Shown: piece after piece, positions 1 to 47,115 of the stretch
Layout of the letters: each line of letters begins with the position of its first letter
Position numbering within the stretch: position 1 is the first letter of the stretch
Source: an uncultured bacterium
GTDB taxonomy: Bacteria; Eisenbacteria; RBG-16-71-46
DNA length: 64,000 nucleotides
NCBI GenBank assembly: GCA_964655175.1
Contig: CAZZLY010000001.1
Coordinates: forward strand, 5,006 to 69,005
Reading direction: 5' to 3'
The notes under the pieces: generated by a model
Told to the model about the DNA's origin: nothing
Seen by the model: only the letters and a program-made list of their open reading frames with translations
Database searches by the model: none
Program-made: the position numbers and the translations under genes

Positions 1-12
1 GACCCGGGCACG

Positions 13-1734
13 GTGGGCGTCTCGGCGGTCGCGGCGGCCGACCTCGATGGCCTGCCCGGTGACGAGCTCGCGTTCCTCGATGCCAGCGGCGCGCTGCGCG
101 TGGTGCGCGGCGATGGCAGCGAACTCACCGGCTTCCCGAGTGCGCCGCTCGCCAACGGCCGTGCGCCCGTGATCGCGCGGCTCGGAGGGCCGGGCACGCC
201 GCCCTCGATCGTGGTCGCCTCACCGAACACGCTCACGGCGTTCGCGCCCGACGGCTCGACGCGCTGGACACGATCGTTCTTCCTCGCGCCGACCCAGGAT
301 CCCGCACTGGCGGATCTGGATGGCGACGGCGTGGACGAGATCGTGCTCGCCAACGCGTCGCCGCCGCAGATCATGGCGTTCGATTCGAGCGGCACCACGC
401 GCCCGGGCTGGCCCGTCGCCATGACGAACCCGGCGCTCGGGCCGCTCGTCGTGGGCCCGCTCACGAGCGGGGGCGGGCTCGGCGTGATGGCGTACACGAC
501 CACGGGCCTGGTGGCGTGGAGCGCGTCGGGCCAGCCGGTGCGCGGCTTCCCACGGCCGGGGCTCGCGGGGGTGCAGTGCTCGCTCGACGATCTCGATGGC
601 GACGGCGCCACCGAGGTCGCCGCGGGCACGGCGGTCCCGGACTCCAACCAGTACACGTACGACGCGGGCCCGGGCACGTTCGCCGCGAGCGCGCTCGTGT
701 GGCCCACCGTGCGCGGGGGCGCGGCGCGCACCGCGAGTCACGCGCGCGGCACCCCGCCCGCGTTCACGATCGACCTCACGGCACCGGGGCGCATCACCGA
801 CCTCGAGGCGCGGACGATCGACAACACCTCGGTGTCGCTGCGGTTCACGCACACGGGGGACGACGGCTTCGTGGGCACGGCGGCACGGCTCGAGCTGCGC
901 GCGTATCAGGGTCCGCTCGACGACGCGAACTTCGCGGTGTTCGGCACGTTGTTGCCGCCGATCCCGCCGCGTCCCGCGGGGACGCTCGACAGCGTCGTGG
1001 TGCACGGACTGCCCGAGGGCACGACGCGCTGGTTCGCACTGCGAGCGTTCGACCGCTTCGAGCGCGGCTCAGAGGTGTCCAACTCGGACTCGGCCTCGCT
1101 GCCCGGCGTCGCGCCCGGTGGCGTGCGCGACCTGCGCGCAACCGCGACGAACGAGAGCACGGTGGTGCTCACGTGGCTCGCCTCGGGCGGCGACGGCGAC
1201 CTGGGCCGTCCGCTGCGCTATCGCATCGCGGGCGCCCCGGGCCCGCTCGATTCCGCGAGCTTCGCGGTCGCCCCCGTGCAGCGCCTGCTCGATGCCACGC
1301 GCGATGCGGGCCAGCCCGAGACGTTGATGGTGGACCGGCTCACACCGGGGCGCCGCTGGCGGTTCGCGGTGATCGCGGTGGATGCCGCGTTCTCGGAGTC
1401 ACCCATGTCGACCTTGGCCGAGGCGGTCACCCCGGTCGGCGGCGCGATCGCGGGGCGCACCGGGTTCACGCTCGCGGCCCGACCGCTGCCGGCGTCGGCC
1501 GAGGTCACCGTGGACTGGCAGGGTGATCCTTCGGGCACCGTGCCGCAGTGGCTCGAGGTGCACGACCTCGCCGGTCGACTGCGTCGTCGCGTGTCGGTGG
1601 GGACCGAGCCCGGCGGGAGCTGGCAATGGAACGGCCGAGACGAGGAAGGTGTCCTCGTCCCGGCCGGTCTCTACTTCGTTCGACTGGTCAGCGGGTCCCG
1701 CCACGCGACGTCGCGTGTCGTGTTCGTCCGTTGA
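13..1734 (+). CDS. Secreted FG-GAP/VCBS-repeat protein with two fibronectin-III-like domains and a Por-secretion-tail-like C-terminal domain. It is 5'-truncated by the window edge.
   Basis: Repeated DLDGDG..E(I/V) FG-GAP-like motifs and GWP motifs. Two FN3-like segments (ITDLEARTIDNTSVSLRF; VRDLRATATNESTVVLTW). The C-terminal ~80 aa (VTVDWQG...VPQWLEVHDLAGRLRRRV...WQWNGRDEEGVLVPAGLYFVRLV) match the FlgD-Ig / T9SS C-terminal sorting domain pattern. The ORF begins at a GTG at nt 13 with no upstream stop, so the true start probably lies outside the window. Confidence 0.6.
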   Translation: MGVSAVAAADLDGLPGDELAFLDASGALRVVRGDGSELTGFPSAPLANGRAPVIARLGGPGTPPSIVVASPNTLTAFAPDGSTRWTRSFFLAPTQDPALADLDGDGVDEIVLANASPPQIMAFDSSGTTRPGWPVAMTNPALGPLVVGPLTSGGGLGVMAYTTTGLVAWSASGQPVRGFPRPGLAGVQCSLDDLDGDGATEVAAGTAVPDSNQYTYDAGPGTFAASALVWPTVRGGAARTASHARGTPPAFTIDLTAPGRITDLEARTIDNTSVSLRFTHTGDDGFVGTAARLELRAYQGPLDDANFAVFGTLLPPIPPRPAGTLDSVVVHGLPEGTTRWFALRAFDRFERGSEVSNSDSASLPGVAPGGVRDLRATATNESTVVLTWLASGGDGDLGRPLRYRIAGAPGPLDSASFAVAPVQRLLDATRDAGQPETLMVDRLTPGRRWRFAVIAVDAAFSESPMSTLAEAVTPVGGAIAGRTGFTLAARPLPASAEVTVDWQGDPSGTVPQWLEVHDLAGRLRRRVSVGTEPGGSWQWNGRDEEGVLVPAGLYFVRLVSGSRHATSRVVFVR

Positions 1735-2206: not shown

Positions 2207-2451
2207 GGTGAGCAGCCTCCGAGTTGAGGGACTTGTTGGGCGTGTCGCAGGATTCCAAGCCTGGATCCCGTGACCGCCTTGTGGACCGAGCGGTACCTAC
2301 TGCAACCTCGGTGCCAATCGGACCGAGGGGTGAGGCGAGACGCATGAAACGTTTATTCACAGTCGGTAAGCGCATCGGGGCTTTTCACCCCGGCCTTGCC
2401 GCGACCGGCAGAACTTGCGGACTGCATGTCCCCGGCATTGCGTGTTGCGCG

Positions 2452-4527
2452 ATGCGCATGATCCGTGCGGTCCCGAGCACACTCCGCTCGTGCCGGGTAT
2501 CGGCACTCCTTGCCGTCTCCTTGACCCTGCTTTTCGTCGGGCCCGGTCGGGCCGAGACACCCGTGTTCGGCTCCCCATTGCGCTGGCCACTCACGACGCC
2601 GGGTCACGCGTTGCGCGGCGGCTTCGGCGAGACGCGCTCCAACCATTTCCACGCGGGGCTCGATCTCTCGACCGGGCAACGCGTGGGGGCGGTGGTGGTG
2701 GCCCCGGCGGCCGCCACGGTCGAACGCGTGCGCGCCTCCGGTGTGGGGTACGGCCGCTCGTTGTATCTGCGGCTGACCGATGGCCGGCTCGTGGTCTACG
2801 GCCACCTCGATGCGTTCGAGCCCCGGCTGGCGGCGTGGGTGGACTCGGTCCAGCGCGCGACCACTTCTTATGAGCAGGACCTGTGGCCCGAGGCCGGTCG
2901 GTTCGGCTACGCGACGGGCGACGTGGTCGCCTGGAGCGGTGAGAGCGGGGCCGGGCCGCCGCACCTGCACGTCGAGGTGCGTCACGGCGACTTCGGCCTC
3001 AATCCGCTCATGGCGGGGTTCGCGGTGCCCGACACGGTGCCGCCGACGATCGAGACGCTGGTGCTGGAGCCGCTCGACGAGCGCTCGTTCGTCGAGCGCC
3101 GCGCCGCGCCGTACGTGCACCGCGTGCGCGCGGCGGGCGACACGCTGCTCGTCGAGGGCCGCGTGCGGTTGGCACTGGTGGCGTCGGACGCCAGCAACGA
3201 GGCCCGCGGACTACCCGTGCGGCGCGTCGCGGCGTTCTGGAACGGGCAGTGGGTCGAGTGCCGCATGGACAGCATCTCGTGGGCGGGGGAGATGTCGCAG
3301 ATCGCGTGGTTGCTCGACCGCGGTCGCATCGTCGGCAGCGGCGGCGTGATCCTGGATGCCCCGCCGCGCTATCGGCCGCGGTTCCTCGCCTCGAGTCGTC
3401 CCGACACGCTCGCGACCGAGCTGGTCACGGTGAGCGATGGTGCGGCCCCGCGCGAGCTGCGTCTGGTCGCGAGCGACGCGGCGGGTCGCGAGACCGTTCG
3501 CCGGGTCTGGTTGCGCGGGCCGCGCTGGAACGAACTCGGTCCCGACACGCGTGGCGTGACCCCGACGCCCAAACCGGTCCGTGGCGCCAAGGCCGTGCCC
3601 GCGGTCGATCCGCGCTGGACCTTCGCCACGCTGCCCGATCAGCGTGTGCGGGTCTCGGTCACCGGTACGCCGCCGGGTCTGCGCGCGGTGCGCATCGAGC
3701 GCGGCGGCACCGCGCCCGAGAACAGTGGCGGCGTGGACGCCTCGTGGGACGGCGCGTCGTGGAGCGCCGTGCTCAACATGACCGGCACGCCCGATCCCGA
3801 CGGCCTGTGGATCAAGGGCCGCCTCGCCGACGGCAAGGCATGGTGGCATCGCGGCGCGTGGTCGCTGTGGGCCACCGGGACCCCGTTCGTCATCAAGCAC
3901 GACGAGTGGGCGTGGACGTCGCTGCCGCCGGAGCAGGTGCTCGAGAACGACGTCGTCATGACGCGCCTGACGCCGATCGGCGGACTGGCACCCGGCGCGG
4001 TCGGGGTGCGCGCGGCGTTCGAGATCCAGCCGGCCGCGATGCCGGTGCGTCGCCCCGTCACGCTCTGGCTGCGGCTGCCGGTCGGCATGGCACGCGACCG
4101 GCTCGGGATGTTCCGCCGCGACGGCGAGGGCGACCGCTGGGAGTGGGCCGACGGCGTGCTCGACACGGTCGGCAACGCCTTCCACGCCGAGGCGACGCGG
4201 TTCGGTCAGTTCGCCGTCGTTCGCGACGACGCCGCACCCGAGGTGACGCTCCTGCCCACCCGGTCGCGGGGGAGTGCGGGGCCCTATTCGCGCTGGGCGG
4301 TCGAGGCGCGCGTGCTCGACGGCACGAGCGGGGTGGCGGGCCGACAGTGCACGATCCGCATCGATGGACGGCTCGTACCCGCCGAGTGGGACGCCGAGTC
4401 GAAGGTGTTGCGCTGGAGGCCGTTGCAGCCGCCGTCGAAGGGGCGACATGAAGTCGTCGTCGAGGCGGTCGACCGGGTCGGCAACCGCACGGTCCGCTCC
4501 GGCTCCTTTGTGATAGTTTCGCGCTGA
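2452..4527 (+). CDS. M23 family (LytM/lysostaphin-like) zinc metallopeptidase with a long C-terminal extension.
   Basis: HFHAGLDLS ... GRSLYLRLTDGRLVVYGHLD ... GESGAGPPHLHVEV are the HxxxD and HxH signatures of M23. A signal-peptide-like MRMIRAVPSTLRSCRVSALLAVSLTLLFVGPGRA begins at 2452. The ORF track offers 2224, and an in-frame ATG at 2344 is another alternative start. Confidence 0.75.
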   Translation: MRMIRAVPSTLRSCRVSALLAVSLTLLFVGPGRAETPVFGSPLRWPLTTPGHALRGGFGETRSNHFHAGLDLSTGQRVGAVVVAPAAATVERVRASGVGYGRSLYLRLTDGRLVVYGHLDAFEPRLAAWVDSVQRATTSYEQDLWPEAGRFGYATGDVVAWSGESGAGPPHLHVEVRHGDFGLNPLMAGFAVPDTVPPTIETLVLEPLDERSFVERRAAPYVHRVRAAGDTLLVEGRVRLALVASDASNEARGLPVRRVAAFWNGQWVECRMDSISWAGEMSQIAWLLDRGRIVGSGGVILDAPPRYRPRFLASSRPDTLATELVTVSDGAAPRELRLVASDAAGRETVRRVWLRGPRWNELGPDTRGVTPTPKPVRGAKAVPAVDPRWTFATLPDQRVRVSVTGTPPGLRAVRIERGGTAPENSGGVDASWDGASWSAVLNMTGTPDPDGLWIKGRLADGKAWWHRGAWSLWATGTPFVIKHDEWAWTSLPPEQVLENDVVMTRLTPIGGLAPGAVGVRAAFEIQPAAMPVRRPVTLWLRLPVGMARDRLGMFRRDGEGDRWEWADGVLDTVGNAFHAEATRFGQFAVVRDDAAPEVTLLPTRSRGSAGPYSRWAVEARVLDGTSGVAGRQCTIRIDGRLVPAEWDAESKVLRWRPLQPPSKGRHEVVVEAVDRVGNRTVRSGSFVIVSR

Positions 4528-4603
4528 ACTCCCGGGCGGGCCCTCCGGGTCCGCCCCGTGCGGCGCCCTGCCACCCGCACCCCCGACCGACCTCTCGCGC
4601 AGG

Positions 4604-7600
4604 ATGCGCCCCATGAAGCACTCGGACTTCGTCCACCTCCACAACCACAGCGACTATTCGCTCCTCGACGGGGCGAGCCCGATCCCGGCCATGGTCAAGA
4701 AGGCGGCCAAGCTGGAGATGCCGGCGCTCGCGCTGACCGACCACGGGGCGATGTTCGGTGCGGTCGAGTTCTACCAGGAGGCGCGCAAGGCCGGGATCAA
4801 GCCGCTCGTGGGCATGGAGGCGTACGTCACCCGCGGCAAGCTCACGGACCGCACGCCCGGCGACAAGGCGCACCATCTGGTGCTGCTCGCGCGCGACGAG
4901 CGCGGCTTCAAGAACCTCATGCGGCTGGCGAGCCTCGCCTACCTCGAGGGCTTCTACTACAAGCCGCGCGTCGACCATCACGTGCTGGGCCAGCACGCGG
5001 AAGGCCTGTTGGCGCTGTCCGCCTGTCCGCAGGGCGAGGTCGCGATGGACCTGCTCGAGGACCGCGACGACGACGCCATGCGCACCGCGGGCATGTACCG
5101 CGACATGTTCGGGGCGGACAACTACTTCCTCGAGATGCAGAACCACGGGCTCGACATCGAGGACAAGATCCGCGCCAAGGTCGCGCAGTTGGCCACGCGC
5201 ACCGGCATCCCGATCGTCGCCACCAACGACTGCCACTACATCGACCACGACCACACCGAAGCGCAGGACGTGCTCATCTGCATCCAGACGGGCAAGACCG
5301 TCTCGGACGAGAAGCGCATGCGCGCCATGGAGCACTTGCACTTCCGCTCGCCGGCCGAGATGAAGGAGGCGTTCCGCGATCATCCGCAGGCGATCCTCAA
5401 CACGCTGGCGGTGGCCGAGCGCTGCAACCTCAAGATGGACTTCGGCAAGCCGCTGCTGCCCGAGTTCCCGCTGCCGCCGGGCGAGCGCGACGCCGACGAG
5501 TACTTCCGCAAGCTGGCGTGGGCCGAACTGGCGACGCGCTTCCCGGGGGGCTTCACCGAGGCGCTCAAGCAGCGCTTCCAGTACGAGCTCGACGTCATCT
5601 GCAAGATGGGCTTCGCGTCGTACTTCCTGATCGTGCGCGACTTCATCCACTTCGCCCGCACGCGCGGCATCGGCGTGGGCCCCGGCCGTGGCTCGGCCGC
5701 CGGTTCCATGGTCGCCTACGCGCTGCGCATCACCGACGTGGATCCGTTCCGGCACCAGCTCATCTTCGAGCGGTTCCTGAACCCCGAGCGCGTCACCATG
5801 CCCGATATCGATATCGACTTCGACGATCTGCGGCGTGGCGAGGTGATCCAGTACGTGAAGGACAAGTACGGCGAGCGCAACGTCACGCAGATCATCACGT
5901 TCGGCACCATGGGCGCCAAGGGCGTCATGCGCGACGTGGGGCGCGCGCTCGGGCTGCCCGTGCCCGAGGTCGATCGCATCGCCAAGCTCGTGCCCGACAC
6001 GCTGGGCATGACGCTCGACAAGGCGATCGAGTCCACGCCCGAGCTCAAGTCGCTGCCCTCCAAGGGGCCCGTGTACGCCAAGCTCATGCGCAGCGCCAAG
6101 GTGCTCGAGGGCCTGGCGCGTCACAGCTCGGTGCACGCGGCCGGCGTGCTCATCACGCCGGGGCCGCTCACCGACTACGTGCCGCTGTGTCGTCAGAAGG
6201 GCGATCTCGTCACGACGCAGTGGGACATGAAGTCGGTCGAGAAGGCCGGGCTGCTCAAGATGGACTTCCTCGGGCTGCGCACGCTGTCCGTGCTGCAGGA
6301 CGCGGTCGACCTCGTGAAGCTGCACCACGGGCGCGACGTGGACGTGGCGAATCTGCCCGAGGACGATCCCAAGTCGTTCGAGGTGTTCCAGGCCGGCGAC
6401 ACCGTGGCCGTGTTCCAGTTCGAGTCGCCGGGCATGCGCGACTACCTCAAGCGCCTCAAGCCCACCGTGGTCGACGACCTCACGGCCATGAACGCGCTCT
6501 ACCGCCCCGGGCCGATGGAGAACATCCCGTACTTCATCGACTGCAAGCACGGCCGGCAGAAGGTGAAGTACGACCATCCCAAGCTCGAGCCGATCCTCGC
6601 GAGCACCTACGGCGTGTTCGTGTACCAGGAACAGGTCATGGCGGCCGCGCACGATCTGGCCGGCTTCTCGATGGCACAGGCCGACGAGCTGCGCCGCGCC
6701 ATGGGTAAGAAGATCGTCGAGGAGATGGAGAAGAAGCGCGTCCAGTTCGTGGACGGCTGCGAGAAGACCTCGCGCATCGCCCCCAAGGTGGCCGAGCGCA
6801 TCTTCGCCACGATGGAGAAGTTCGCGGGCTACGGCTTCAACAAGTCGCACTCGGCCGCGTACGCGATCGTCGCCTACCAGTGCGCGTATCTGAAGGGCAA
6901 CTACCCGGCCGAGTTCATGGCCGCCGCGCTCACCTCCGAGATGAGCGACAGCACGCGCGTGCTCACGCTCGTGGACGAGTGCCGTCACAAGGGCATCGGG
7001 ATCCTGCCGCCGGACGTGAACCACTCGAACTGGAAGTTCAGCATCGAGGGCGGTCAGGTGCGCATCGGGCTGGGTGCCGTGCGCAACGTGGGGCAGGCCC
7101 CGGTCGAGGCCATCGTGGCCGCGCGCGCCGAGGGCGGGCCCTTCAAGGACCTGTACGATCTCACCGCGCGCATGCCGGCGGGCGTGCTCAACCGGCGCGT
7201 GCTCGAGAGTCTGGCCGCGTCCGGCGCGCTCGATTCGCTGGGCGGCTCGCGCGAGCGCCTGTTCGCGGGCGCGGCCGGGGCGCTCGAACACGCGGCCGCG
7301 CAGCATCGCGATGCAGCGGCGGGGCAGTCGTCGCTGTTCGGCGAGGACAGCGGTTCGCTGGGCGTGGCGGTCGCACCGCCCCTGCCCGAGGTGCCGGCGT
7401 GGACCGACCGCGAGCGCGGCACGCGCGAGAAGGAGCTGATCGGCTTCTACCTCACGGGGCATCCGCTCGAGCCGATCCGCGCGCAGGCCGAGCGCGTCGC
7501 GACGCATTCGATCGGGCAGGTGCTCGAGCAGGGCGACGGCGCCGAGGTGCGCATCGTCGCGCTCGTGGGCGAGATCAAGTCGATCACCACCAAGACGGGC

Positions 7601-8046
7601 AAGCTCATGGGCATGGTGATGCTCGAGGACCTGAGCGGTCGCATCGAGTGCACGCTGTTCCCGGAGGCCTGGGAGCAGTCGCGTTCCAAGCTCGAGCCCG
7701 ACGCGGTCGTCGTCGTCTCGGGGCGCATCGAGGTGCGCGAGGAGCGTGGGCCCAAGCTGCTGATCAACGACGTGCGGCCGTGGGAGACCGCGCAGTACCA
7801 GTTCGCGCCCTCGCTCTACATCGAGGTGCGCGCCGAGGAGCTCACCGAGGAGAATCTCGCCGGCATGGACGAGATCCTGTCGGCGCATCCCGGCGATGCC
7901 GACGTGCTGCTGACCATCGTGAAACCCGACAACACCCGTCTGGCCATGCGTTCGCGTCGCTTCCGTGTGGGCGACGATCCGGCGTTGCTGACGGGCCTCA
8001 AGGCCCGCATGCCCAGTGCCCGCGTGCGCTGGGGGAAGGGGGGCGT

Positions 8047-8050
<4 letters not shown>
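4604..8050 (+). CDS. dnaE: DNA polymerase III alpha subunit.
   Basis: N-terminal PHP domain FVHLHNHSDYSLLDGA, a polymerase core, and a C-terminal OB-fold region. Length 1148 aa. The alternative ATG at 4613 (MKHSDFVHLH) is equally plausible. Confidence 0.95.
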
Positions 8051-9187: not shown

Positions 9188-9355
9188 ATGGCGCTGAGTC
9201 CCGATCTGTTGGCCATCCTGGTGTGTCCCGCCTGCAAGGGCGATCTCGCCTACGACAGCAACGCGAACACCCTGACCTGTCCCGCGTGCCGGCTCCGCTA
9301 CAAGGTGGTGGAGGACATCCCGGTGATGCTCGTGGACGAGGCCGAGAAGTTCTGA
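9188..9355 (+). CDS. Trm112/UPF0434 (YcaR-like) small zinc-ribbon protein of 55 aa. It is absent from the ORF track because it falls below the size cutoff.
   Basis: [55 protein letters not shown] shows the LL.IL.CP.CKG.L ... C..C ... DGIPVML..EA pattern of the family. Compare E. coli YcaR. Confidence 0.6.
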
Positions 9356-9384
9356 ACCCGCGGCCCGCGATCGTGCCCATCCCG

Positions 9385-12300
9385 ATGAGGTTCCGTCGTA
9401 CCGTCGTCGCCACGCTGGCGATGCTCGCGCTGTGCGGTGCGCCCCGTGTGGGCGCGGCCGCCACGCCGACGCCGCTCGCCGGGGTCCGCCTCGCGCCCGC
9501 CACGCCCGGTGCGGTGCGTTTCACCGTCGCCGTGCCCGAGCCGCGCTTCGTGCGCGTCGATCACGACCTCGACCACGACGATCTCATGATCGACGGCTTC
9601 ACCACCGTGGGCACGCCCGGGCAGCCCGCGCTGCCGACGCGTGTCGTGATGGTCGCGGTCCCGCCCGTGGGCGAGGTGCGCCTGACCGCGGTCGCGAGCG
9701 ACGTGCGCGTGCGTGAGGGCGTCACGCTGGCACCGCGTCCCGCCGAGGATCGCGAGGGGCACGTCGTGCGCGTCGCGCGCGACCTCGCGGCCTACGGTGC
9801 CGCCGGCAGCCCGGTGCCCGTCGCCGCGCGACTGCTCGACGTGTCGTGGCTGCGCAACCAGCGCGTCGCGCGCATCGAGTTGTCGCCCGCCGCCTACGAA
9901 CCCGCCGCGCGTCGTCTGGGCGTGGCCTCGCGTCTCGACGTCGAACTCGCCGTGGACGTGCTCGGACCGCTGGGCCCGCCCGCCGAAGCGAACGACGGCT
10001 TCGAGCCCGTCTACCGTCAGTCGCTCCTCAACTACGCGCAGGGCCTCGCGTGGCGACGTCCCGAGACCGCCGCGTTGCTCGCCGCCTCGCGCCGCGCCGG
10101 GGTGCGTCTCGAGGCCACGCAGGCCGATGCGATCACCGTGGGCGATACGACCAGCGTGTTCGCGGGCCGCACCTGGATCAAGATCGCGGTGCAGAAGTCC
10201 GGCTTCGTCGCGGTGAACTTCTCGCGGTTGCGCAATCTGTCGCTGTTCGATCCCACGATCCCCGCGCCGCTCGACAGCCTGCGGTTGTTCACGTGGCCCG
10301 GTGTGACCGTGCTGCCCGAGGACAGCTACTGCGACTCGTGCGCCTATCGCGAGGTCGCGATCGGCATCGTGCGCGACGTGAGCGCGCCGCCCTCCGGGCA
10401 GCCCAACGTGGACGGACCGGCCGATGGGCTGTTCGCCGACAACAACGACGCGTTCTACTTCTACGCGCAGGGACCGGACGGGTGGGAGAGCGATCAGGAC
10501 GCCGCGCGCCCGGACACGAACTACACGACCAACCCGTACGAGAAGAACAACTACTACTACCTGACCGTCTCGCGCAGCGACAATCCCGTGAGCGGTCTCG
10601 CGTACCCGGTGAGCGCGCGTCGCATCGGCGCCGATGCGGCCACGCGTCGCAGTGTCACGCCCGACGGTCGCGAGACGCCGGTCGCGACGGTGCCGGGGCG
10701 CGTGCACCTCGAGCAGGACCTCGAGTACTGGCCGGACGCCACCGCGGTGGGCAGCTCGCTCAAGTGGGAGAAGTTCTTCTGGCGCAGCCTCATCTCGGGG
10801 CAGACCTTCACGCACTCGCTCGATCTGCCGGATGCCGACACCACGCAGCCGGCGCGGCTCCGGTTGCGGCAGTGGGGGCTGTCGGACAACTACCGCACGC
10901 TCAACTTCAGCTGCTTCGTGCGCATCCCCGATCACGTGCTCGACGTCTCGCTCAACGGGCTCACGATCCCGAGGCTGAGTTGGTTCTCGAACACGGCCGA
11001 GGACGGTGGGGCGGTGACGATCGACACGACCGCCACGTTCCTGCGGCGCACCGGGAATCAGCTCACGGTCACCGTGCCGGTGCTGCCGCGCGACCCGGAC
11101 TGCCCCAATCGTCTCGATCGCAGCGCCGTCGCGTTCTACGAGGTGTACTACGCGCGCCGTCTGATGCCCGAGGGCGATGCGATCACGTTCGCCACCGCCC
11201 CGGGGACCGGTCGCTTCCGTTACGACGTCGGACCGTTCGCGCGCACGCCGTCGTCGTTCGTGTTCGACGTCACCGATCCGCAGCGACCCGTGCTGCTCAC
11301 CGATGCCGTGCGCACGAACGGGCCCGAGGGTTTCACGCTGTCGTTCGCGGACACGCAGACCGTGGCGCATCGCTACGCGGTCGTGCCCGACTCGATCCTC
11401 ACGCAGACGACCGCGGTGCTGGCGGCGAGCGCGTTCTCGGATGCGCCGTTCACGAGCCGTCGCAACCTGCGCAGCACGACGAATCGCGCCGACTACCTCG
11501 TCATCCACTACGACGGATTCCAGCAGGCCGCGGATTCGTTGGTCGCCTGGCGGCGTCAGCACCTGCCGCTGCTGGCCACGCCGGCGCCGCATGCCGCGGA
11601 GGCGATCCCGGTGTCGGCGATCTTCGACCAGTTCTCGGGCGGGCGCACCGACCCGGGCGCGATCCGCAGCTTCCTGCGCGCGGCCTACGGCTGGGCGACG
11701 CGGCCCCTGTACGTGACGTTCCTGGGCGACGCCTCGTACGACTACAAGGACATCACCGGGCGCGCCACGCCGGGGCTGCCGGGCTGTCTGCTGCCGACCT
11801 ACGAGAACGGCTTCGACAAGACGTTCGTCATCCGGCGTCAGTACGTGACCGACGACTGGATCGTGAACGTGAACGATTCGCGCGTCGTGTTGCCGGACTA
11901 CCTCTCGGGGCGCATCCCCGCCGACGACGCGGCCTCGGCCCTCGCGGTGGTGACGCAGAAGGTGCTCGGTTACGAGCGCCGCGCCCCGGTCGGGGAGTAC
12001 CGCAACAGCGTCCTGTTCATGGCCGACGACAACGTGCAGGGCGGACCGTGCGACGCCACCAATTGCGAGCGCGGCTGCGACGCACTGGCGTGGACCCACG
12101 TGTTCCAGACCGACAACCTGAACGTCGCGCACACGCCCGAGCACATCGACCGCGAGTACGTGTACCTGCACACCTATCCGACCGGTCCGGGTGTGACCAA
12201 GCCGGGGGCGCGTGCCGACCTGTTCGCCAAGCTCAATCAGGGGACGTCGGTCTTCAACTACGTCGGCCACGGCAGTCCGTTCAAGATGACCGACGAGGGC

Positions 12301-13809
12301 GTGTTCCTGGACAGCGACGCCGGCACGTTGTCGAACGGCCTCAAGATGTCGCTCATGGTCTCGGCCTCGTGCGACGTGGGCAAGTTCAACGACCCGAGCG
12401 TGCAGAGTCTGGGCGAGCGCATCTTCATGTCGCCGAACGCCGGTTGCATCGCGGTGCTCTCGGCGACCGAGCAGGCGCTGTCCTCGGACAACAGCTTCCT
12501 CAACGGTCTCATCTACGACGGCCTGTTCAATCGCGACACGCTCACCGTGGCGGGCAACCTGCTGCCCACGGTGGGGCAGTTCCACGTGCCCGTCTCGGCC
12601 GCGCTGCTCGCCGCCAAGCAGGTGCCGGCGGCGCAGTCGTCGAACAGCCAGAAGTACCAGCTCATGGGTGACCCCGCGCTGCTGCTCAATCTGCCGCGCT
12701 ATTGGGTCGATCTGCGGCTCACGGATCTGGCGGGTGCTCCGGTGACCACGCTCACGCGCGGCCAGACGCTGCGGTTCTCGGGCGAGGTGCTCGATCGTCC
12801 GGGCGGCACGCGCGTCGTCATGGACGGTGTCTCGAGCGTGCTCATCGAGGATTCGGCGCCGCAGGACCGCACCGACGGGACCTGCCAGACGCCGGTGGAT
12901 TACACGTTCAGCGCCGGCCCCATGTACCACGGCGACGTCACCGTTCGTGGCGGCACGTTCTCGGGGCGCTTCGTGGTGCCGCTCGATGCGACCACGGGCA
13001 CCGAGGCGCGCGTGCGTGCCTACGTGACCGGCCTGCCCACCGGGGTGTCCGCGGTGCAGGACGGCGTCGGTGCCGAACGCTCGGCCGTGGTGCCCGGCGC
13101 GCCGCCGGCCGACGATCTCGAGGGCCCGCGCATCACGCTGTCGTTCCTCGGGGGCTCGACCAACGTGCGACCCGGTTCGACGCTGCAGGTCGTGCTGTTC
13201 GATGAGAGCGGCATCATGACGACGGGCCACGCGTTGCAGAACTCGATCATCGTGACGCTCGACGGCAACAGCACCTCGCGCACCGACATCACGCCGAGCT
13301 TCCGGTACGCCGCCGATTCGTATCAGTCGGGGACCGCCACGTTCACGTTGCCGACGCTCAGTCCGGGGCCGCACACGCTCAAGGTCTCGGCGGCCGACAA
13401 TCTCGCCACCGGGCTCGGTGCGGCGCAGCACCGCAGCGTCGCGACGCTCGATTTCCAGGTCGTGGACACGCCGCCGCTGAACGTCGCGCGGACCTATCTG
13501 TTCCCGAATCCCGTTCGCTCGGCGGGGAAGGGGGCGGGTGGCGTGTTCGTCGTCGACGCCCCGGGCGACTCGATCAACACCCTCATCCGCATCTACACGG
13601 TCGCGGGTAAGTTGGTGCGGGAACTACGCATGATGGGTGGGATCGGGCAGGTCCAGATGCCGTGGGACGGGCGCGACGCCGAGGGCGACCCGCTCGCGCA
13701 GGGCACCTACCTTTACAAGGTTCATGTCAGCGTCCGAGATGCCGATGGTAGGAGCAACCCCCGCCAGCGCGCTGCGGCGGAGGGACGCTTCGTCGTTCTC
13801 AGCCCCTAG
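9385..13809 (+). CDS. Very large secreted peptidase C25 (gingipain-family) protein, PorU-like, with a Por-secretion-tail-like C-terminal domain.
   Basis: Signal peptide MRFRRTVVATLAMLALCGAPRVGAAA. C25 catalytic His/Cys context YVGHGSP ... MVSASCDVGKF. The C-terminal ~90 aa (YLFPNPVRS...IRIYTVAGKLVRELRMMG...WDGRDAEGDPLAQGTYLYKVHV) match the CTD shared with two other proteins in this window. It is followed directly by a PorV-like barrel gene. The true start is the ATG at 9385, and the track's 9046 start is a spurious upstream extension. Confidence 0.65.
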   Translation: MRFRRTVVATLAMLALCGAPRVGAAATPTPLAGVRLAPATPGAVRFTVAVPEPRFVRVDHDLDHDDLMIDGFTTVGTPGQPALPTRVVMVAVPPVGEVRLTAVASDVRVREGVTLAPRPAEDREGHVVRVARDLAAYGAAGSPVPVAARLLDVSWLRNQRVARIELSPAAYEPAARRLGVASRLDVELAVDVLGPLGPPAEANDGFEPVYRQSLLNYAQGLAWRRPETAALLAASRRAGVRLEATQADAITVGDTTSVFAGRTWIKIAVQKSGFVAVNFSRLRNLSLFDPTIPAPLDSLRLFTWPGVTVLPEDSYCDSCAYREVAIGIVRDVSAPPSGQPNVDGPADGLFADNNDAFYFYAQGPDGWESDQDAARPDTNYTTNPYEKNNYYYLTVSRSDNPVSGLAYPVSARRIGADAATRRSVTPDGRETPVATVPGRVHLEQDLEYWPDATAVGSSLKWEKFFWRSLISGQTFTHSLDLPDADTTQPARLRLRQWGLSDNYRTLNFSCFVRIPDHVLDVSLNGLTIPRLSWFSNTAEDGGAVTIDTTATFLRRTGNQLTVTVPVLPRDPDCPNRLDRSAVAFYEVYYARRLMPEGDAITFATAPGTGRFRYDVGPFARTPSSFVFDVTDPQRPVLLTDAVRTNGPEGFTLSFADTQTVAHRYAVVPDSILTQTTAVLAASAFSDAPFTSRRNLRSTTNRADYLVIHYDGFQQAADSLVAWRRQHLPLLATPAPHAAEAIPVSAIFDQFSGGRTDPGAIRSFLRAAYGWATRPLYVTFLGDASYDYKDITGRATPGLPGCLLPTYENGFDKTFVIRRQYVTDDWIVNVNDSRVVLPDYLSGRIPADDAASALAVVTQKVLGYERRAPVGEYRNSVLFMADDNVQGGPCDATNCERGCDALAWTHVFQTDNLNVAHTPEHIDREYVYLHTYPTGPGVTKPGARADLFAKLNQGTSVFNYVGHGSPFKMTDEGVFLDSDAGTLSNGLKMSLMVSASCDVGKFNDPSVQSLGERIFMSPNAGCIAVLSATEQALSSDNSFLNGLIYDGLFNRDTLTVAGNLLPTVGQFHVPVSAALLAAKQVPAAQSSNSQKYQLMGDPALLLNLPRYWVDLRLTDLAGAPVTTLTRGQTLRFSGEVLDRPGGTRVVMDGVSSVLIEDSAPQDRTDGTCQTPVDYTFSAGPMYHGDVTVRGGTFSGRFVVPLDATTGTEARVRAYVTGLPTGVSAVQDGVGAERSAVVPGAPPADDLEGPRITLSFLGGSTNVRPGSTLQVVLFDESGIMTTGHALQNSIIVTLDGNSTSRTDITPSFRYAADSYQSGTATFTLPTLSPGPHTLKVSAADNLATGLGAAQHRSVATLDFQVVDTPPLNVARTYLFPNPVRSAGKGAGGVFVVDAPGDSINTLIRIYTVAGKLVRELRMMGGIGQVQMPWDGRDAEGDPLAQGTYLYKVHVSVRDADGRSNPRQRAAAEGRFVVLSP

Positions 13810-13928: not shown

Positions 13929-14879
13929 ATGCGTTCGTCCAGCACCATCCTCCTGGGCATCGCCCTCGGCCTGACGTTGGCCACGACGGCCTTCGCGCAG
14001 GGCACGGGCCGTTCGCTCGACATCCAGCCGGGTGGTCGTCAGAACGGTATGGGTGCGACCGGTGTCGCCATCGCCGATGACGCCACGGGCGTGACCTGGT
14101 GGAACCCCGCCGGTCTCGGCTTCGTGAACAAGTCGGCCATCGACCTGACGTACGCGCAGCTCGTGCCGGGCCTGGCGAACGACGTCAACTACAACTACCT
14201 CACGTACGTGCGGCCCACGTCGGGCTGGGGCGCGTTCGGCGTCGGCCTGGTGTTCCTGTCGTACGGCACGAGCGAGGGCACGGATCCGTTCGGCAACCCG
14301 ACCGGATCGTTCACCTCGAACGAGATCTCGCCGGCGCTCTATTACGGCACCAAGCTGCTGCCGGAGCTGTCGGTCGGTGCGTCGCTCAAGTACATCCGCA
14401 TCAACCTCGCGCCGCAGTCGCAGTCGGGCGTGGGCGCGACGTTCGGTCTCGACCTCGGGGCGCTCTACCGCATCCCGGCCGCGCGATTGAACCTCGGCGT
14501 GAACGTGCAGAACCTCGGGCCCAGCGTGACGTTCATCAACGAGGACCAGCGCAGCCCGCTGTCGCGCAACGTCAAGCTCGGCGCGGCGTGGGAGGCCTAT
14601 TCGAACGACGGCTTCAAGGTCCTGCTCGCCGGTGACTTCGATCAGTCGCTCGTCACCAGCGCGTTCCGTCAGGAGCACGTCGGCGTCGAACTGCGCTACA
14701 CGGACCAGATCGCCGGTCGCGTGGGCTACTACAACGATCCGCTGGGCCAGCTGCAGGGGCTGACCTACGGCATCGGTCTCGGGTATCGCGGCCTGTCGCT
14801 CGACTTCGGCAGCATCCCGCAGGCGAAGGGTTCGGGTCTCCCGAACGTCCAGAAGCTCACGCTGGGCTACCACTTCTGA
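13929..14879 (+). CDS. FadL-superfamily outer-membrane beta-barrel. It is a candidate PorV (LptO)-like shuttle protein.
   Basis: Signal peptide MRSSSTILLGIALGLTLATTAFAQG after RBS AGGAG. NGMGATGVAIADDATGVTWWNPAGLGF carries the NPAGL-type N-terminal motif of the FadL/PorV family. The C-terminus ends in aromatic ...LTLGYHF, typical of a beta-barrel. It sits immediately downstream of the C25/PorU-like gene, matching the canonical porU-porV pairing. Confidence 0.45.
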   Translation: MRSSSTILLGIALGLTLATTAFAQGTGRSLDIQPGGRQNGMGATGVAIADDATGVTWWNPAGLGFVNKSAIDLTYAQLVPGLANDVNYNYLTYVRPTSGWGAFGVGLVFLSYGTSEGTDPFGNPTGSFTSNEISPALYYGTKLLPELSVGASLKYIRINLAPQSQSGVGATFGLDLGALYRIPAARLNLGVNVQNLGPSVTFINEDQRSPLSRNVKLGAAWEAYSNDGFKVLLAGDFDQSLVTSAFRQEHVGVELRYTDQIAGRVGYYNDPLGQLQGLTYGIGLGYRGLSLDFGSIPQAKGSGLPNVQKLTLGYHF

Positions 14880-14887
14880 ACGGACAC

Positions 14888-17800
14888 GTGAAACTGCGCC
14901 ATCCAGTCGTCGCACTCGTCGTCGCGTTCGCGCTCACGGCCGCACGGGCTCCCATGGCCCGTGCGGCCGAAGCGCGTTCGCTGACCGTCCGTCCCGTGGC
15001 GCCGGCCGAGCAGGTGCTCGACCAGCAGCGCCGCGGCATCGTGCCGCGCGCCGCCGCGATGACCCCCGCCGAGCGCGCCGTCCTCCAGCAGCGGCTCGAC
15101 CGCCAGCGCGCGGCGCGGGCGATCGAGGACACGATGCACGCCAGGGCGTCGCGCGTCGGCGCCGGGATCACGGCGAACCGTCGCCGGGGCTGGCGGCCGC
15201 CGCAGGCCGCCGCGGGCAAGCCGGGCACGAGCGCGTTCGCGCCCGCCGTCGGCACCGTGGACACGATCCGCGTGGCGTTGCTGCGCATCGACTTCCTCGA
15301 GGACCGACTCGGGCCCGCCTCCAGCGGCGACGGGCGGTTCAACCTCGACCCGGCCGACACGATCGCCAACCCGGTCGATCGCCCGCCGCACAATCGCGAC
15401 TTCTATCGCGCGCACGGTGAGGCGCTGTCGCGGTACTACGACGCGCAGACCTACGGTCAGGTCCACGTGCAGGTGGACGTGTGGCCGGCGGAGCAGGACT
15501 CGGCGTACCACCTGTCCGACATGGCCGACCTGGGCCCGTGGCGATTCGGCAGCGGCATCTTCCGCGCCGCCGTGGACATGATGAAGAAGTCGTTCATGGC
15601 CGCCGACTCGCAGTCGGTGGTGCACGGTGGCCGCATCCCGTGGGACGACTACGACCGCTTCCTCATCATCCATGCGGGCAGCGACCTGCAGAGCGATCTG
15701 CGCGGCGATTCCAAGCTCGACATCCCGTCGTTCACGATGTTCGTGGACGACACCGACCGCGTCGAGTTCCCCGACAGCGTCTTCCGTCCGATCGATCGCG
15801 TCGCGTTCCTGCCCGAGACGATCAATCAGGACGACGCCTACGGCGCGATCAACGGTGTGATCGCGCACGAGTGCGGTCACAACTTCTTCGGCTTCGGTGA
15901 CGTGTACGACGTCAGCACCGCGCTGCCCACCGTGGGCTACTGGTCGCTCATGGACAGCGGCAATCTCGTGGGGGCGCGATTGCTGTCGTCCACGGGCGAG
16001 ATCTTCGTGGTCGGTCTGCTGCCACCGAGCGTCGATCCGTTCCAGCGCAACTTCGCCACGATCACGCAGTCGAGCCTGCTCAACTTCCGGGAGCCCGGAG
16101 CGGCCGACACGACCGCCTTCCCGCTGTACGGCAGCCAGCGGCACAACGATTTCGTGAAGCTCGATCTGTCCACGGACGAGTACCTGCTGCTCGAGAACCG
16201 CTACCTGTCTCCGGCCGCCGCGGTGCGTCTGCTGCGCGACAGCACCACGGACGTCGTGCTCGGGCCACGCGAACCGGACCGCTACGAGTACGACGCGCTG
16301 CTGCCCGGTTCGGGCGTGCTGGTGTGGCACGTGGACGAGAGCGTGATCCCGTTCAACACGTCGTTGCGCGTGAATCCCGACTTCGGCTTCAACACCAACC
16401 CGCGCCGCTACGGTCTGCAGATGATCGAGGCCGACGGGCTCGACGATCTGGGGGACGTGGGTTCACCGTTCCTGTTGGGCAGCGCGCTCGATCCGTACCA
16501 GGCCTCGGTCGCCACGACGCTCTCGGACGTCACGGTGCCGAACCTGCGTCCCAATCAGGGCACGCGGCCGCATCTGCGCATCGACTTCCTCGACGACGCC
16601 TCGGACACGATGCACGTGCGCGTGACGCGGACGTGGCAGCCCGCCGGCTGGCCCGTGCGCGGCAACTTCCCGCCCGGTGGCCCGCGACTGCTCGCACTCG
16701 ACCTCGATGGCGACGGCAAGCGCGAGGTGCTGTGGGCGGGGGGCGACACGGTGGTGACCGACTTCAGCCTCGCCGGCCGCAAGGTCGCCCGCGACAGCGC
16801 GGGCGTGTTCGCGGTCCGCTTCGACGGTCGCGGGCTCGCCGCCGCCGACACGTTCGATTTCGCGCACCTCGATCGCCGTCCCCGGCCGGCACTCGCGGCC
16901 TGGGTCGCGAACCCCGTCACGGGACAGGGGCCCGGGGTCGTCGTCGCGACGACGATGCGCCACGGCGCGTCGGATGCGGCGGGTGGGCGCGTGTGGGCGA
17001 TCCAGGCCGATGGCGCCGTGCGCGCGGGTTTCCCGGTCACCTTGGCCTCTCCGGCCAGCACCGCGCCGATCGTCGTGCAGCGCCCGAGCGGCATCCGCAT
17101 CCTGGTGGGTTGCGAGGACGGTCGCGTGCGCGCCCTCGATGAGAACGGCGTGCTGCGCGCCACGAGTGCCCTCGCGCTCGACGGACCCGTCACGGGTTCG
17201 CTCGCGTGCGGCGAGGATCCGACGCTGCCGGTGCCGTTCGTGGCCACGCCGCAGGGACTCGTCGCGGCGGGCGACTCGACCGGTCAGGTCGTGCTCCTGA
17301 CGCTGCCCGACCTCACCCCGGTGAGCGGTTGGCCGCGCTCGGTGGGCGGGGCGGGCTTCACGCCGGACTTCCTGTTCATGCAGAGCGGGGGGGCGGGGGC
17401 GAGCGCCGACGTGGCGTGCGGCGGGTCGCCGACGCTTTACGTGCACCACGCCGATCGCGTGTGGGCCTTCTGTCCGCCGGGGGCGACGGCCGTCGAGGGC
17501 TGGGGCCTGCCGCAGCGCGACACGCTCGTGGCCGGATTGGCCGCCGGTGACCCCGACGGCGACGGCTTCCCCGAGATCGTGGCGCAGACGCAGCATTCGC
17601 AGGTGCTGTTCCTCAATCGCACCGGACGACCCTCGCCGGGTTGGCCGCGCGCGGCGAGTGCCGATGAGTTCCGCACCTCGAGCGCACCCATCGTGGTGGA
17701 CGTGAATGGCGATGGCCGCCCCGAGATCGTGGCACTCACCGCGAGTGGCGTGCTCAACGCGATCGATGGCAACGGACGCGTGGCCGAAGGCTGGCCGCTC

Positions 17801-18304
17801 GCGACCGGTGCGGGCTGCGCGGGTTCGCTCGTCGCCACCGACCTCGAGGGTGACGGCTCGCTCGAGTTCGTCGCGCCCGATCGCTTCGGTCGGCTGTACG
17901 CGTACACCACGAGCCTGCTCGCCTCGGGCCCGACCGCGCCGTGGCTGCAGTGGGGCGGGGGCGTGGGGCGCACGTTCGACCTGCCCGCGCTCGCCACGAG
18001 CACGCCGCGCGCGCCCAGCGCCGGGCCGCTCGTGCCGGGGTCGCTCAAGGCGTACCCCAACCCCGCGCGCATGAAGCCGATCCAGTTCGCCTACCAGTTG
18101 AGCGAGGACGCCACCGTCGAGGTGCGCATCCTCGATGCGTCGGGGCACGAGGTCACGCGTTGGACGCGTGCGGGCCGTCGCGCCGACAACCTCGACCGTT
18201 GGGATCCGACCGGTGTCCCGGCCGGCCTGTACGTGGCGCATCTGCGCTTCGCGGGCCCCGGCGGGACGCGCACCGAGACCGTGCCGTTGGGCATCCTGCG
18301 ATGA
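14888..18304 (+). CDS. Secreted M6-like (immune inhibitor A type) zinc metalloprotease fused to FG-GAP repeats and a Por-secretion-tail-like C-terminal domain.
   Basis: Signal peptide MKLRHPVVALVVAFALTAARAPMARA. HExxH-type motif VIAHECGHNFFGFGDVYD, compared with the M6 HEYGHDLGLPDEYD. At least four DxDGDG..E(I/V) FG-GAP repeats with GWP motifs. C-terminus KAYPNPARMKPIQFAYQL...VEVRILDASGHEVTRW...WDPTGVPAGLYVAHLRF. GTG start lies 9 nt after the upstream stop. Confidence 0.6.
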   Translation: MKLRHPVVALVVAFALTAARAPMARAAEARSLTVRPVAPAEQVLDQQRRGIVPRAAAMTPAERAVLQQRLDRQRAARAIEDTMHARASRVGAGITANRRRGWRPPQAAAGKPGTSAFAPAVGTVDTIRVALLRIDFLEDRLGPASSGDGRFNLDPADTIANPVDRPPHNRDFYRAHGEALSRYYDAQTYGQVHVQVDVWPAEQDSAYHLSDMADLGPWRFGSGIFRAAVDMMKKSFMAADSQSVVHGGRIPWDDYDRFLIIHAGSDLQSDLRGDSKLDIPSFTMFVDDTDRVEFPDSVFRPIDRVAFLPETINQDDAYGAINGVIAHECGHNFFGFGDVYDVSTALPTVGYWSLMDSGNLVGARLLSSTGEIFVVGLLPPSVDPFQRNFATITQSSLLNFREPGAADTTAFPLYGSQRHNDFVKLDLSTDEYLLLENRYLSPAAAVRLLRDSTTDVVLGPREPDRYEYDALLPGSGVLVWHVDESVIPFNTSLRVNPDFGFNTNPRRYGLQMIEADGLDDLGDVGSPFLLGSALDPYQASVATTLSDVTVPNLRPNQGTRPHLRIDFLDDASDTMHVRVTRTWQPAGWPVRGNFPPGGPRLLALDLDGDGKREVLWAGGDTVVTDFSLAGRKVARDSAGVFAVRFDGRGLAAADTFDFAHLDRRPRPALAAWVANPVTGQGPGVVVATTMRHGASDAAGGRVWAIQADGAVRAGFPVTLASPASTAPIVVQRPSGIRILVGCEDGRVRALDENGVLRATSALALDGPVTGSLACGEDPTLPVPFVATPQGLVAAGDSTGQVVLLTLPDLTPVSGWPRSVGGAGFTPDFLFMQSGGAGASADVACGGSPTLYVHHADRVWAFCPPGATAVEGWGLPQRDTLVAGLAAGDPDGDGFPEIVAQTQHSQVLFLNRTGRPSPGWPRAASADEFRTSSAPIVVDVNGDGRPEIVALTASGVLNAIDGNGRVAEGWPLATGAGCAGSLVATDLEGDGSLEFVAPDRFGRLYAYTTSLLASGPTAPWLQWGGGVGRTFDLPALATSTPRAPSAGPLVPGSLKAYPNPARMKPIQFAYQLSEDATVEVRILDASGHEVTRWTRAGRRADNLDRWDPTGVPAGLYVAHLRFAGPGGTRTETVPLGILR

Positions 18305-19134
18305 TCGCGTTCGTCCTGACCGCGCTCGTGTCCACCGCTCCCGTCCCCGTGGAGGCGTTCTGCGTGGGCTCGACGCCCGCGCTGGCGCCGGTCACGGTGG
18401 CGGTCCCGGGGCGCGACGCCGTCGGTGCCGCGCTCGTGTCCGAACTCGCGCCGCGCATCCGTCACGGCGCCTCCCAGGTGCCCGAGGGCTGGCTGGCGCA
18501 GCGGTCGATCGAGCGCAGTTGGGGACTGTCCGACGATTCGCTCTACACCGAGGTCGTGATCCCGGACTGGAAGTCCGAGGGGACCGCGTTCGCGCTGTCG
18601 GCCGTGCTGCCCGGTGCGGGCGAGCGCTACGTCGGCGAGAACAGCGCGTGGCTGTTCCTGACCGCCGAGGTGATCGGTTGGGCCGGACGCACGCTGAGTG
18701 GTCGCCGCGCCGATGATCGCTACGCGCAGAACGTCGGCTTCGTCGGCGATCCGGCCGACACGGCGGCGGCGTGGTCGTTCGAGCGCTATCGCGACGCGGG
18801 CGGTGCGCGCGTCGCCGAACTGCAGACGCTGTGGGCGGTGGATCGGGCCTCGTTCTACCGCACGCTCGCCGACGATCCGTCGGTCGCGGGTGGTTTCACC
18901 GCGGGCAGCGCGAACGTGTTCCGCGACGCCTACGACGAGTACCAGGGCCTGCGCCGACGCTCGCGGCTGTTCGAGATCGCGCTGTGGGTCAACCATGCGG
19001 TGTCGGCCTTCGACGCGCTGCGCGCCGCGCATCTGCACAACCTGACGCTCCGTCCCGACACGCAGCTGCAGATGGGCGCCCGCCTCGTGCGCGGCCGACC
19101 CGCCCTGCGTGCCGCGCTCACGAGGAGGTTCTGA
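18301..19134 (+). CDS. Hypothetical protein, DUF5683-like. Paralog 1.
   Basis: Hydrophobic N-terminus MIAFVLTALVSTAPVPVEA. Motif SAVLPGAGERYVGEN resembles the S..PG.GQ.Y motif of DUF5683. ATG overlaps the upstream stop (ATGA). Confidence 0.4.
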   Translation: MIAFVLTALVSTAPVPVEAFCVGSTPALAPVTVAVPGRDAVGAALVSELAPRIRHGASQVPEGWLAQRSIERSWGLSDDSLYTEVVIPDWKSEGTAFALSAVLPGAGERYVGENSAWLFLTAEVIGWAGRTLSGRRADDRYAQNVGFVGDPADTAAAWSFERYRDAGGARVAELQTLWAVDRASFYRTLADDPSVAGGFTAGSANVFRDAYDEYQGLRRRSRLFEIALWVNHAVSAFDALRAAHLHNLTLRPDTQLQMGARLVRGRPALRAALTRRF

Positions 19135-19136
19135 CC

Positions 19137-20018: not shown

Positions 20019-20031
20019 GACGGCGAGCGGC

Positions 20032-21021: not shown

Positions 21022-21024
21022 ACG

Positions 21025-32697: not shown

Positions 32698-32850
32698 CAC
32701 AACGGGTTACGGCGGTACGCTCAAGCGTCGGGTGAGGTCTTCCCCGGCCCCTCGCGCGGTTCGCGGGGATGACCATCGGGCCGTCGGCGGGGTAGCATGC
32801 CGCGCTCGTCGTCCCGCCTTCGTTCGTCCCCGCCCGAGGAGAGCCTCGCG

Positions 32851-34383: not shown

Positions 34384-34425
34384 TTCAGGGACGGATGCCG
34401 CACGCAGCCGGGAGAGCCAGCGCAC

Positions 34426-39531: not shown

Positions 39532-39713
39532 TCGCTGCAGTCGGCCCGGAGGCCGTCCGATACCCACAGGGAACGAGGCCCGTTCGCTCGTCGAGCCCGC
39601 ACGGATGCGCGGCGACGATCGGGCGCGGCGTGCGCGTGCGTGCGCCGTGACGCGACAAGAAGTCCCGCTCCGAGAACGGGTTCCGCTCTCTCGCAACGCC
39701 CCCGGGGATCATC

Positions 39714-41414
<1,701 letters not shown>

Positions 41415-41439
41415 GCGGCCGCTCGAACGGAGAACGACG

Positions 41440-42522: not shown

Positions 42523-42538
42523 ACGGAGGACACGCACC

Positions 42539-43753: not shown

Positions 43754-43754
43754 C

Positions 43755-45425: not shown

Positions 45426-45459
45426 TCACGAAACAACCCGTTCACAGTGAGGTGACGCC

Positions 45460-46881: not shown

Positions 46882-47027
46882 GACGTGCGGGTCGCACGGT
46901 CCGTGGTCGGGGTGGCTGCAAATCGCCCGGCACCACGGATCGGCGAACCCGGGATGTGACACCCCGCCCTCGGCACAAGGTCTTGCCGGACAGCGGGAAG
47001 CAGGGAAGTCAGGGCCGCGCGCCCCGA

Positions 47028-47043: not shown

Positions 47044-47115
47044 GTGAATCCACCCGACCGGTATCCGACCGGCAGGTGCGCCGCGGAATCCCAATCCTCC
47101 AGGGAGGTCAGGATC

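Follow-up and report, generated by a model that had tools for sequence, protein, structure and literature searches.

The stretch of DNA analyzed here (hereafter the window; 64,000 nucleotides of contig CAZZLY010000001.1, positions 5,006 to 69,005) comes from an uncultured bacterium of Candidatus Eisenbacteria, has a G+C content of 71%, and carries on its forward strand three genes whose products share one C-terminal module: a gene truncated by the left edge of the window (hereafter P1), a gene encoding a peptidase of the C25 family, and a gene encoding an M6-like metalloprotease. Including their stop codons, the three open reading frames (ORFs) run to 1734, 13809, and 18304, just as the first-pass annotation of this DNA had placed them. 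We consider it very likely that this shared tail is a type-A-like type IX secretion system (T9SS) C-terminal domain (CTD), that is, a seven-strand immunoglobulin (Ig)-like beta-sandwich of the FlgD_ig superfamily standing at the extreme C-terminus of proteins exported by the Sec pathway. This assignment draws on homology and fold, on the terminal position of the module, on signal peptides, on the neighborhood of PorU and PorV, and on conservation across the phylum.

The protein encoded at 9385..13809 (+) comprises a signal peptide (MRFRRTVVATLAMLALCGAPRVGAAA), the Propeptide_C25 and Peptidase_C25 domains, and a CTD. Its earlier description as a C25 peptidase holds at the family level (PF01364, E 1.9e-62) and can be made more exact: its sequence identifies it as PorU, which is the C-terminal signal peptidase/sortase of the T9SS, with 457.1 bits to NF033707 against an equivalog cutoff of 420. 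In the alignment with P. gingivalis PorU (6za2), the segments FNYVGHGSP and VSASCDVG of the window protein lie opposite LNYAGHGGP and ITATCDFA, and the catalytic His and Cys are presumably those of the GHG and SASCD/TATCD motifs. In P. gingivalis, PorU retains its own CTD as a docking domain instead of losing it. The window PorU CTD (13489..13809, +) begins with LFPNP, has an insertion of approximately 13 residues ahead of its last strand, and resembles the CTD of P. gingivalis PorU (42.4 bits, 31% identity) more than it does the two other tails of the window (28.5 and 16.2 bits). The active site of PorU has been described as a "Cys/His catalytic dyad" (PMC10202324).

The gene directly after porU encodes an outer-membrane protein of the PorV/PorQ family (13929..14879, +; 316 residues in the gene call on an identical Logan contig), which has a signal peptide and ends with ...LGYHF. 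It scores 193.5 bits with NF033709, well above the subfamily cutoff of 90, and 60 bits with PF19572, and it stays below the more specific equivalogs, with 129.9 bits for PorV (cutoff 250) and 101.9 bits for PorQ (cutoff 220).

Eight bases separate porV from the gene of the M6-like metalloprotease (14888..18304, +), the stop codon of which overlaps the start of the next gene. Its product combines the protease part with an FG-GAP propeller region and a CTD (18041..18304, +) that starts with SLKAYPNP and ends with ...GILR. The GTG start at 14888 yields a signal peptide, (V)KLRHPVVALVVAFALTAARAPMARA; the public gene call begins 22 codons downstream (1,116 residues), and this signal peptide is therefore lost from it. 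The protein matches TIGR03296 with 56 bits and NF052323, the model of a "T9SS-dependent M6-like inactivated metalloprotease," with 149 bits, its residues 885-1133 (propeller and CTD) corresponding to positions 790-1038 of the 1043 in the model. It differs from that family in a score far under the cutoff of 600 and in its zinc-binding motif: HECGH, at about residues 327-331, is intact, and HExxH is kept in each of the 15 orthologues whose sequence extends over it. Because the HExxH zinc site is both intact and conserved, the M6 protein is probably an active protease. In public annotation its orthologues appear as hypothetical, immune inhibitor A, or FG-GAP proteins, and the Pfam lists of the 120 listed contain no CTD.

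Of the third carrier, P1, the window holds the 3' part of 577 codons (1..1734, +), which encodes an FG-GAP propeller region, two FN3 domains, and a CTD (1471..1734, +) forming a seven-strand beta-sandwich up to the stop codon. The first-pass annotation had treated the product of 13..1734 as an FG-GAP/FN3 protein; those domains are present, but the product is a fragment of an S8 protein, aligning at 51% identity with residues 668-1240 of the 1,240-residue orthologue P0252, whose domains are Peptidase_S8, FG-GAP, and FlgD_ig. The N-terminus of P0252 is a signal peptide (MRSTSTLHISVFLLGLAGLAGPPLALAPVARAAA); the start of P1 itself lies outside the window. Approximately 665 residues of P1 fall beyond the window edge, a region that in full-length orthologues (L017:88-3786 and P0252) consists of a signal peptide and Peptidase_S8 (subtilase), and by this alignment P1 is the tail part of a subtilase of about 1,240 residues. 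Since full-length P1 orthologues contain Peptidase_S8, all three tail carriers are peptidase-family proteins (S8, C25, and M6), and they have signal peptides, as judged by direct reading of the sequence. They had been called otherwise unrelated, which does not hold: outside the tail, P1 and the M6 protein have FG-GAP sequence in common (BLASTP E 3e-9, 31% over 156 residues).

The last 85-105 residues or so of the three products can be aligned with one another. As single sequences, the P1 and PorU tails are 28% identical over 67 residues with a z of 8.5, and none of 1000 shuffles scored as high. Comparison of orthologue-group profiles with hhalign gave E 2.7e-12 for P1 and PorU, E 2.9e-8 for P1 and M6, and E 0.008 for PorU and M6, the weakest of the three pairs. 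Because single-sequence alignments of the M6 tail do not exceed chance, its kinship lies at the level of profiles and family models, and, given the E of 0.008, it is joined to the set mainly through P1 and the family models. The earlier statement that the three C-termini are alignable thus stands for the last approximately 85 residues, with the M6 link at the profile level only.

Type A CTDs are defined by a seven-strand Ig-like fold in two antiparallel sheets, by motifs A-E, and by a final segment with conserved lysines (PMC10202324). Among the window tails, motif B (an aromatic residue followed by PNP) is found in two of the three, as FPNP in PorU and YPNP in M6, and motif D (GxY) in all of them. 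All 48 orthologous tails keep a G, a W, and the Y of GxY without exception; the G of motif D itself is nearly invariant. The first-pass annotation had ascribed WxGxD...GxY to each protein, which is right for the W and the Y and not for the GxD in the M6 tail, which reads WDPTGVPAGLY. A conserved basic residue stands near the end of the tails, as in type A CTDs; in the place of the motif E lysines it is an arginine, invariant within each orthologue group, at position -6 in P1, -7 or -8 in PorU, and -1 in M6. Lysine makes up 0.2-2% of tail residues.

Family models were applied to the 48 orthologous tails, with matches counted at E<=0.01 unless another threshold is given, and curated cutoffs were 23 bits for TIGR04183 and 27 bits for PF18962, PF13860, and PF13585. 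TIGR04183 matched 43/48 tails, 22/48 at E<=6e-5, which approximates its curated cutoff, with a best E of 2e-8; PF13860 (FlgD_ig) matched 36/48 and PF18962 15/48. NF052323 was matched by 16 of the scanned tails at E<=0.01, with a best E of 2.6e-11. On the full proteins of the window, PF13860 gave 32.2 bits for PorU, exceeding the cutoff, 22.0 bits for P1, and 16.9 bits for M6. The FlgD Ig-like domain (PF13860; 3OSV, 7EH9) is accordingly the best Pfam family for the tails, and resembles them in its beta-sandwich and its WxGxD...GxY core; it differs in that flagellar context is absent here and that the window domain is single, terminal, and borne by proteases.

The type B CTD (TIGR04131 / PF13585 CHU_C) was considered as well. 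It is likewise a C-terminal T9SS signal, and CHU_C produced weak matches, reaching E<=0.01 in 11/48 tails. It was rejected because, of the window proteins, only PorU matched CHU_C, with 16.1 bits, and all window scores were below 27; TIGR04131 was not among the NCBIfam matches listed for the window proteins or for the orthologous tails, and no PorP/SprF-like partner gene adjoins the carriers.

In the Protein Data Bank (PDB), the sequence closest to the tail profile was the P. gingivalis PorU CTD (E 1.7e-8), with FlgD next and the PorZ CTD after it. AlphaFold models were built for the P1 tail (a 107-residue segment; pLDDT 74 overall and >83 from residue 30 onward) and for the M6 tail (pLDDT 86.7, seven strands), and both show seven beta-strands in the same order in an Ig-like sandwich. 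In Foldseek the top match of both models was the PorU CTD 6za2, with a TM of 0.61 and an rmsd of 2.9 A for the M6 tail; the mirolase CTD occurred in both lists, FlgD together with the CTDs of PorZ and NucA in that of P1, and generic Ig-like domains lower down. The PorU CTD is thus the best PDB match of the window tails by sequence and by fold. Together with the position of the tails at the extreme C-terminus of Sec-exported proteins and their encoding beside PorU and PorV, this aligns them with the type A CTDs of P. gingivalis RgpB, PorZ (5M11), and PorU (6ZA2), and the description of the module in the first-pass annotation as a Por_Secre_tail/FlgD-Ig beta-sandwich sorting tag is well supported.

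To examine conservation, the C25 protein was searched against a set holding a single genome for each species. This gave 22 loci with identities of 44-78%, almost all of them bearing the label Candidatus Eisenbacteria. The tail ends 0-2 residues from the stop in the three window proteins and in 50/50 complete orthologues (13 P1, 20 PorU, and 17 M6) from about 20 Eisenbacteria genomes. A hidden Markov model (HMM) of the three window tails matched every complete P1, PorU, and M6 orthologue and nothing else in the loci scanned, and a 50-sequence tail HMM found no further convincing match in 396 kb of these loci plus the window. When a profile of the 48 tails was run against a database of 5.8 billion proteins, the matches listed comprised only short fragments of these three orthologue groups, PorU (41), M6 (72), and P1 (7), and were silent on other cargo. 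The tails appear, from sequence, to be ancient paralogues carried along with their host proteins and not a recently shuffled cassette, because the PorU tail is nearer to that of P. gingivalis PorU than to the other window tails and NF052323 is matched, in its own tail region, by the M6 tails.

In JGI annotation, PorU tail fragments from metagenomes are labelled "flagellar hook assembly/capping protein FlgD." This naming is a mislabel at the domain level.

Several results weigh against the assignment of the module as a T9SS CTD. The single-sequence alignments of the M6 tail with the P1 tail (z 1.7) and with the PorU tail (z 1.4) lie inside the shuffle distribution, and these values, with the weak match between the PorU and M6 profiles, favor the explanation that the likeness of the three tails is due to chance or to compositional bias in a genome of 71% G+C. 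That explanation is effectively refuted by the P1-PorU alignment, by the two stronger profile-profile matches, by independent matches to curated models and to CTDs in the PDB, and by the same predicted strand layout in the P1 and M6 tails. The P1 tail, for which (Y/F)PNP had been claimed along with the other two, has RPLP / RxxPS in place of motif B and no PNP, a departure from type A CTDs. A further departure is in the scores: the full window proteins fall under the TIGR04183 cutoff of 23 bits (P1 16.3, PorU 14.8, and M6 18.1), and so does the isolated P1 tail (20.8 bits, with 26.1 bits for PF13860), which gives a range of 14.8-20.8 bits for the window copies. Pfam assigns FlgD_ig and not Por_Secre_tail, PF18962 being absent among the Pfam matches of the three window proteins at E<=1. 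No PorK/L/M/N gene and no clear Sov/SprA gene is present in the 64-kb window; the host belongs to Candidatus Eisenbacteria and not to Bacteroidota, and in the literature searched no paper pairs Eisenbacteria with T9SS. On the same side stand the generic nature of the fold and of most motifs and the breadth of the three-tail profile, which, searched against 1.84 billion cluster representatives at E<=0.001, matched 128,965 of them; the best 150 of these proteins contained 845 copies of the module, 787 internal and 58 terminal.

This breadth, together with the scores under the TIGR04183 cutoff, speaks for a second alternative, according to which the module is a generic structural or adhesive FlgD_ig domain that happens to come last and has no sorting role, the proteins being exported by another route or remaining periplasmic. 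The hosts among the best 150 are very large proteins of up to 5,317 residues, some with Peptidase_S8 or S-layer-homology (SLH) domains, in which a local count gives up to 17 tandem copies per protein and the search tool as many as 24 matched stretches; GxY and WxGxD are as frequent in their internal copies as in terminal ones. A hydrophobic residue followed by PNP, as found in two of the window tails, behaves differently, being present in 43% of the terminal copies in the same 150 proteins and in 1% of the internal ones. This difference argues against a generic domain, as do the end of the domain within two residues of the stop codon in every complete orthologue, the true T9SS CTDs at the top of both the sequence and the structure matches, and the fact that PorU itself is a carrier with PorV adjoining it. 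We regard a purely structural or adhesive role as very unlikely.

What the search does establish is that the pattern alone marks the FlgD_ig superfamily and not sorting tags, and that a copy becomes recognizable as a sorting tag through its position at the C-terminus together with the PNP motif and a context of PorU and PorV. The global search comes close to the outcome that the first-pass annotation had set as refuting its reading, matches to hundreds of unrelated Ig-like domains; in 460 kb of Eisenbacteria DNA, by contrast, the HMM matches only the three orthologue groups. The proposal that the module would serve as a handle for the full cargo repertoire of the organism is weakened by the same internal copies. 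In this phylum, CTDs are under-called at standard cutoffs, owing to the arginines in place of the motif E lysines and to scores that stay slightly under the threshold. The FlgD_ig pattern by itself over-calls them in turn, and a census of cargo therefore needs a lineage-specific model combined with a filter for C-terminal position and the PNP motif.

The gene order around the carriers bears on a third alternative. In about 20 loci the order P1, M23-like gene, DnaE gene, small ORF, C25 gene, PorV-like gene, M6 gene, genes for proteins of unknown family, NHL gene, and large ORF is kept. It may be, though we hold it to be unlikely, that all three tails are permanent docking domains and that the S8 and M6 propeller proteins are stable partners of PorU and PorV in the complex for surface attachment and no ordinary cargo, as PorZ, with its two propellers and CTD, is a partner of PorQ in P. 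gingivalis. PorU and PorZ both retain their CTDs. The arrangement of the three genes with porU-porV in the same order across the phylum is consistent with such a role, as are the close packing of the M6 gene between porV and the next gene, the FG-GAP propeller regions beside the CTD in both carriers other than PorU, and the strong conservation of the tails inside each orthologue group; the PorU/PorZ attachment complex provides a precedent (PMC8754138). Set against this, similarity of the proteins to PorZ at the sequence level is absent beyond the CTD, the intact HExxH of the M6 protein and the S8 domain belonging to P1 point to secreted proteases that function, FG-GAP propellers are widespread in secreted proteins, and the order around dnaE may be mere synteny.

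If the module is a type-A-like T9SS CTD, as we consider very likely, secretion, cleavage, and attachment may be pictured by analogy with the T9SS of Bacteroidota, which serves as the model for the proposed pathway (PMC12398890, PMC8754138, PMC10202324), and PorKLMN and Sov would be expected elsewhere in the genome. The N-terminal signal peptide would carry each protein over the inner membrane by Sec export, after which the folded CTD would be recognized by the T9SS and pass through the outer-membrane translocon. At the surface, the CTD would be captured by PorV, encoded between two of the three carrier genes, and PorU, a Cys/His peptidase, would remove the CTD of the S8 and M6 proteases, which would then be freed or joined to a surface glycolipid. 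The CTD of PorU itself is more likely to be kept, docking PorU to PorV as in P. gingivalis. The three proteins had been taken for a co-exported cargo set; the tag on which this rests is upheld, but one of the supposed cargoes is the sortase.

Other genes of the conserved order lie between the carriers or follow them. Between P1 and porU, in positions kept in related genomes, are genes for an M23-peptidase-like protein (2224..4527, +) and for DnaE, the alpha subunit of DNA polymerase III (4604..8050, +); as DnaE keeps its place there, a housekeeping replication gene stands inside the conserved string. Directly upstream of porU is a gene for a Trm112/YcaR-like zinc-ribbon protein of 55 residues (9188..9355, +), which matches the Trm112 model with E 4.8e-8, its score lying below the cutoff of that model. 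Exact look-ups with the DnaE and PorU products of the window gave no match, and one with the M6 product led to Logan contigs. Downstream gene calls were taken from Logan contig L023, which is identical to the window DNA and on which genes for the Trm112-like protein, PorU, PorV, the M6 protein, and proteins of 277 residues, 293 residues, the NHL type, and 1,114 residues form a tight string. The last four of these (18301..24369, +; the NHL-repeat protein has 329 residues) are packed in the same apparent operon and provide context only. The 277-residue protein (18301..19134, +), the start of which overlaps the M6 stop, and the 293-residue protein (19137..20018, +), which ends with ...TTNF as outer-membrane proteins do, are both kept in related loci and are unassigned to a family: neither has a convincing NCBIfam match (best E 0.12), and for the wider ORF containing the 293-residue gene neither Pfam nor NCBIfam gave a match at E<=0.01.

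The 1,114-residue protein (21025..24369, +) is outer-membrane-like, with a signal peptide and the end ...RAFF, and closes the porU-porV string in all Eisenbacteria loci. It has at least 260 homologues of approximately 1,100-1,180 residues; the few with a name bear the label hypothetical, and no Pfam domain is recorded for the 120 listed. All 10 orthologues tested match TIGR04189 (SprA/Sov), with a best E of 4.2e-8, over one segment of about 50 residues only, and the same segment also matches phage tail-tube models; a profile of the 10 orthologues had no match in the PDB even at E<=10. As a SprA/Sov translocon the protein was therefore rejected, a single short segment shared with phage tail-tube models and lacking a PDB match being too weak; we take the similarity as a lead. 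It is quite improbable, in our estimate, that the string from porU to the 1,114-residue protein is a compact Eisenbacteria-specific export and attachment module, in which proteases with a propeller and a CTD would replace PorZ and the 1,114-residue protein would be a half-size translocon; what speaks for it is synteny and one short similarity.

Elsewhere in the window a search for T9SS genes turned up no core component of the system, only genes for histidine utilisation, DinG, type IV pili, a two-component system, and an ABC transporter. Within 28161..36246 and 39651..52297 (+) lie a histidine-utilisation set (HutH, HutI, and FtcD) followed by a gene for a TPR protein and, after the latter, a type IV pilus cluster (PilB, PilT, PilC, a sensor kinase, a sigma-54 response regulator, and PilM) with an ABC transporter ATPase. 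Antisense ORFs of >1,200 codons run over real genes, for example at 9298..13431 (-) and 4058..7888 (-); they are the usual artefact of a genome poor in stop codons at 71% G+C, and coding frames were picked out by a third-position G+C of 0.87-0.95.

For the distribution of T9SS, the finding extends recognizable attachment machinery (PorU and PorV) and type-A-like tails to Candidatus Eisenbacteria, an uncultured lineage of high G+C content which we take to belong to the FCB superphylum. T9SS and its CTDs have been described as a property of that superphylum (PMC12398890, PMC8754138). The tails have been overlooked or mislabelled in public annotation. The biology is otherwise as the T9SS literature already describes, and the module is an ordinary feature, correctly recognized, in a little-studied phylum.

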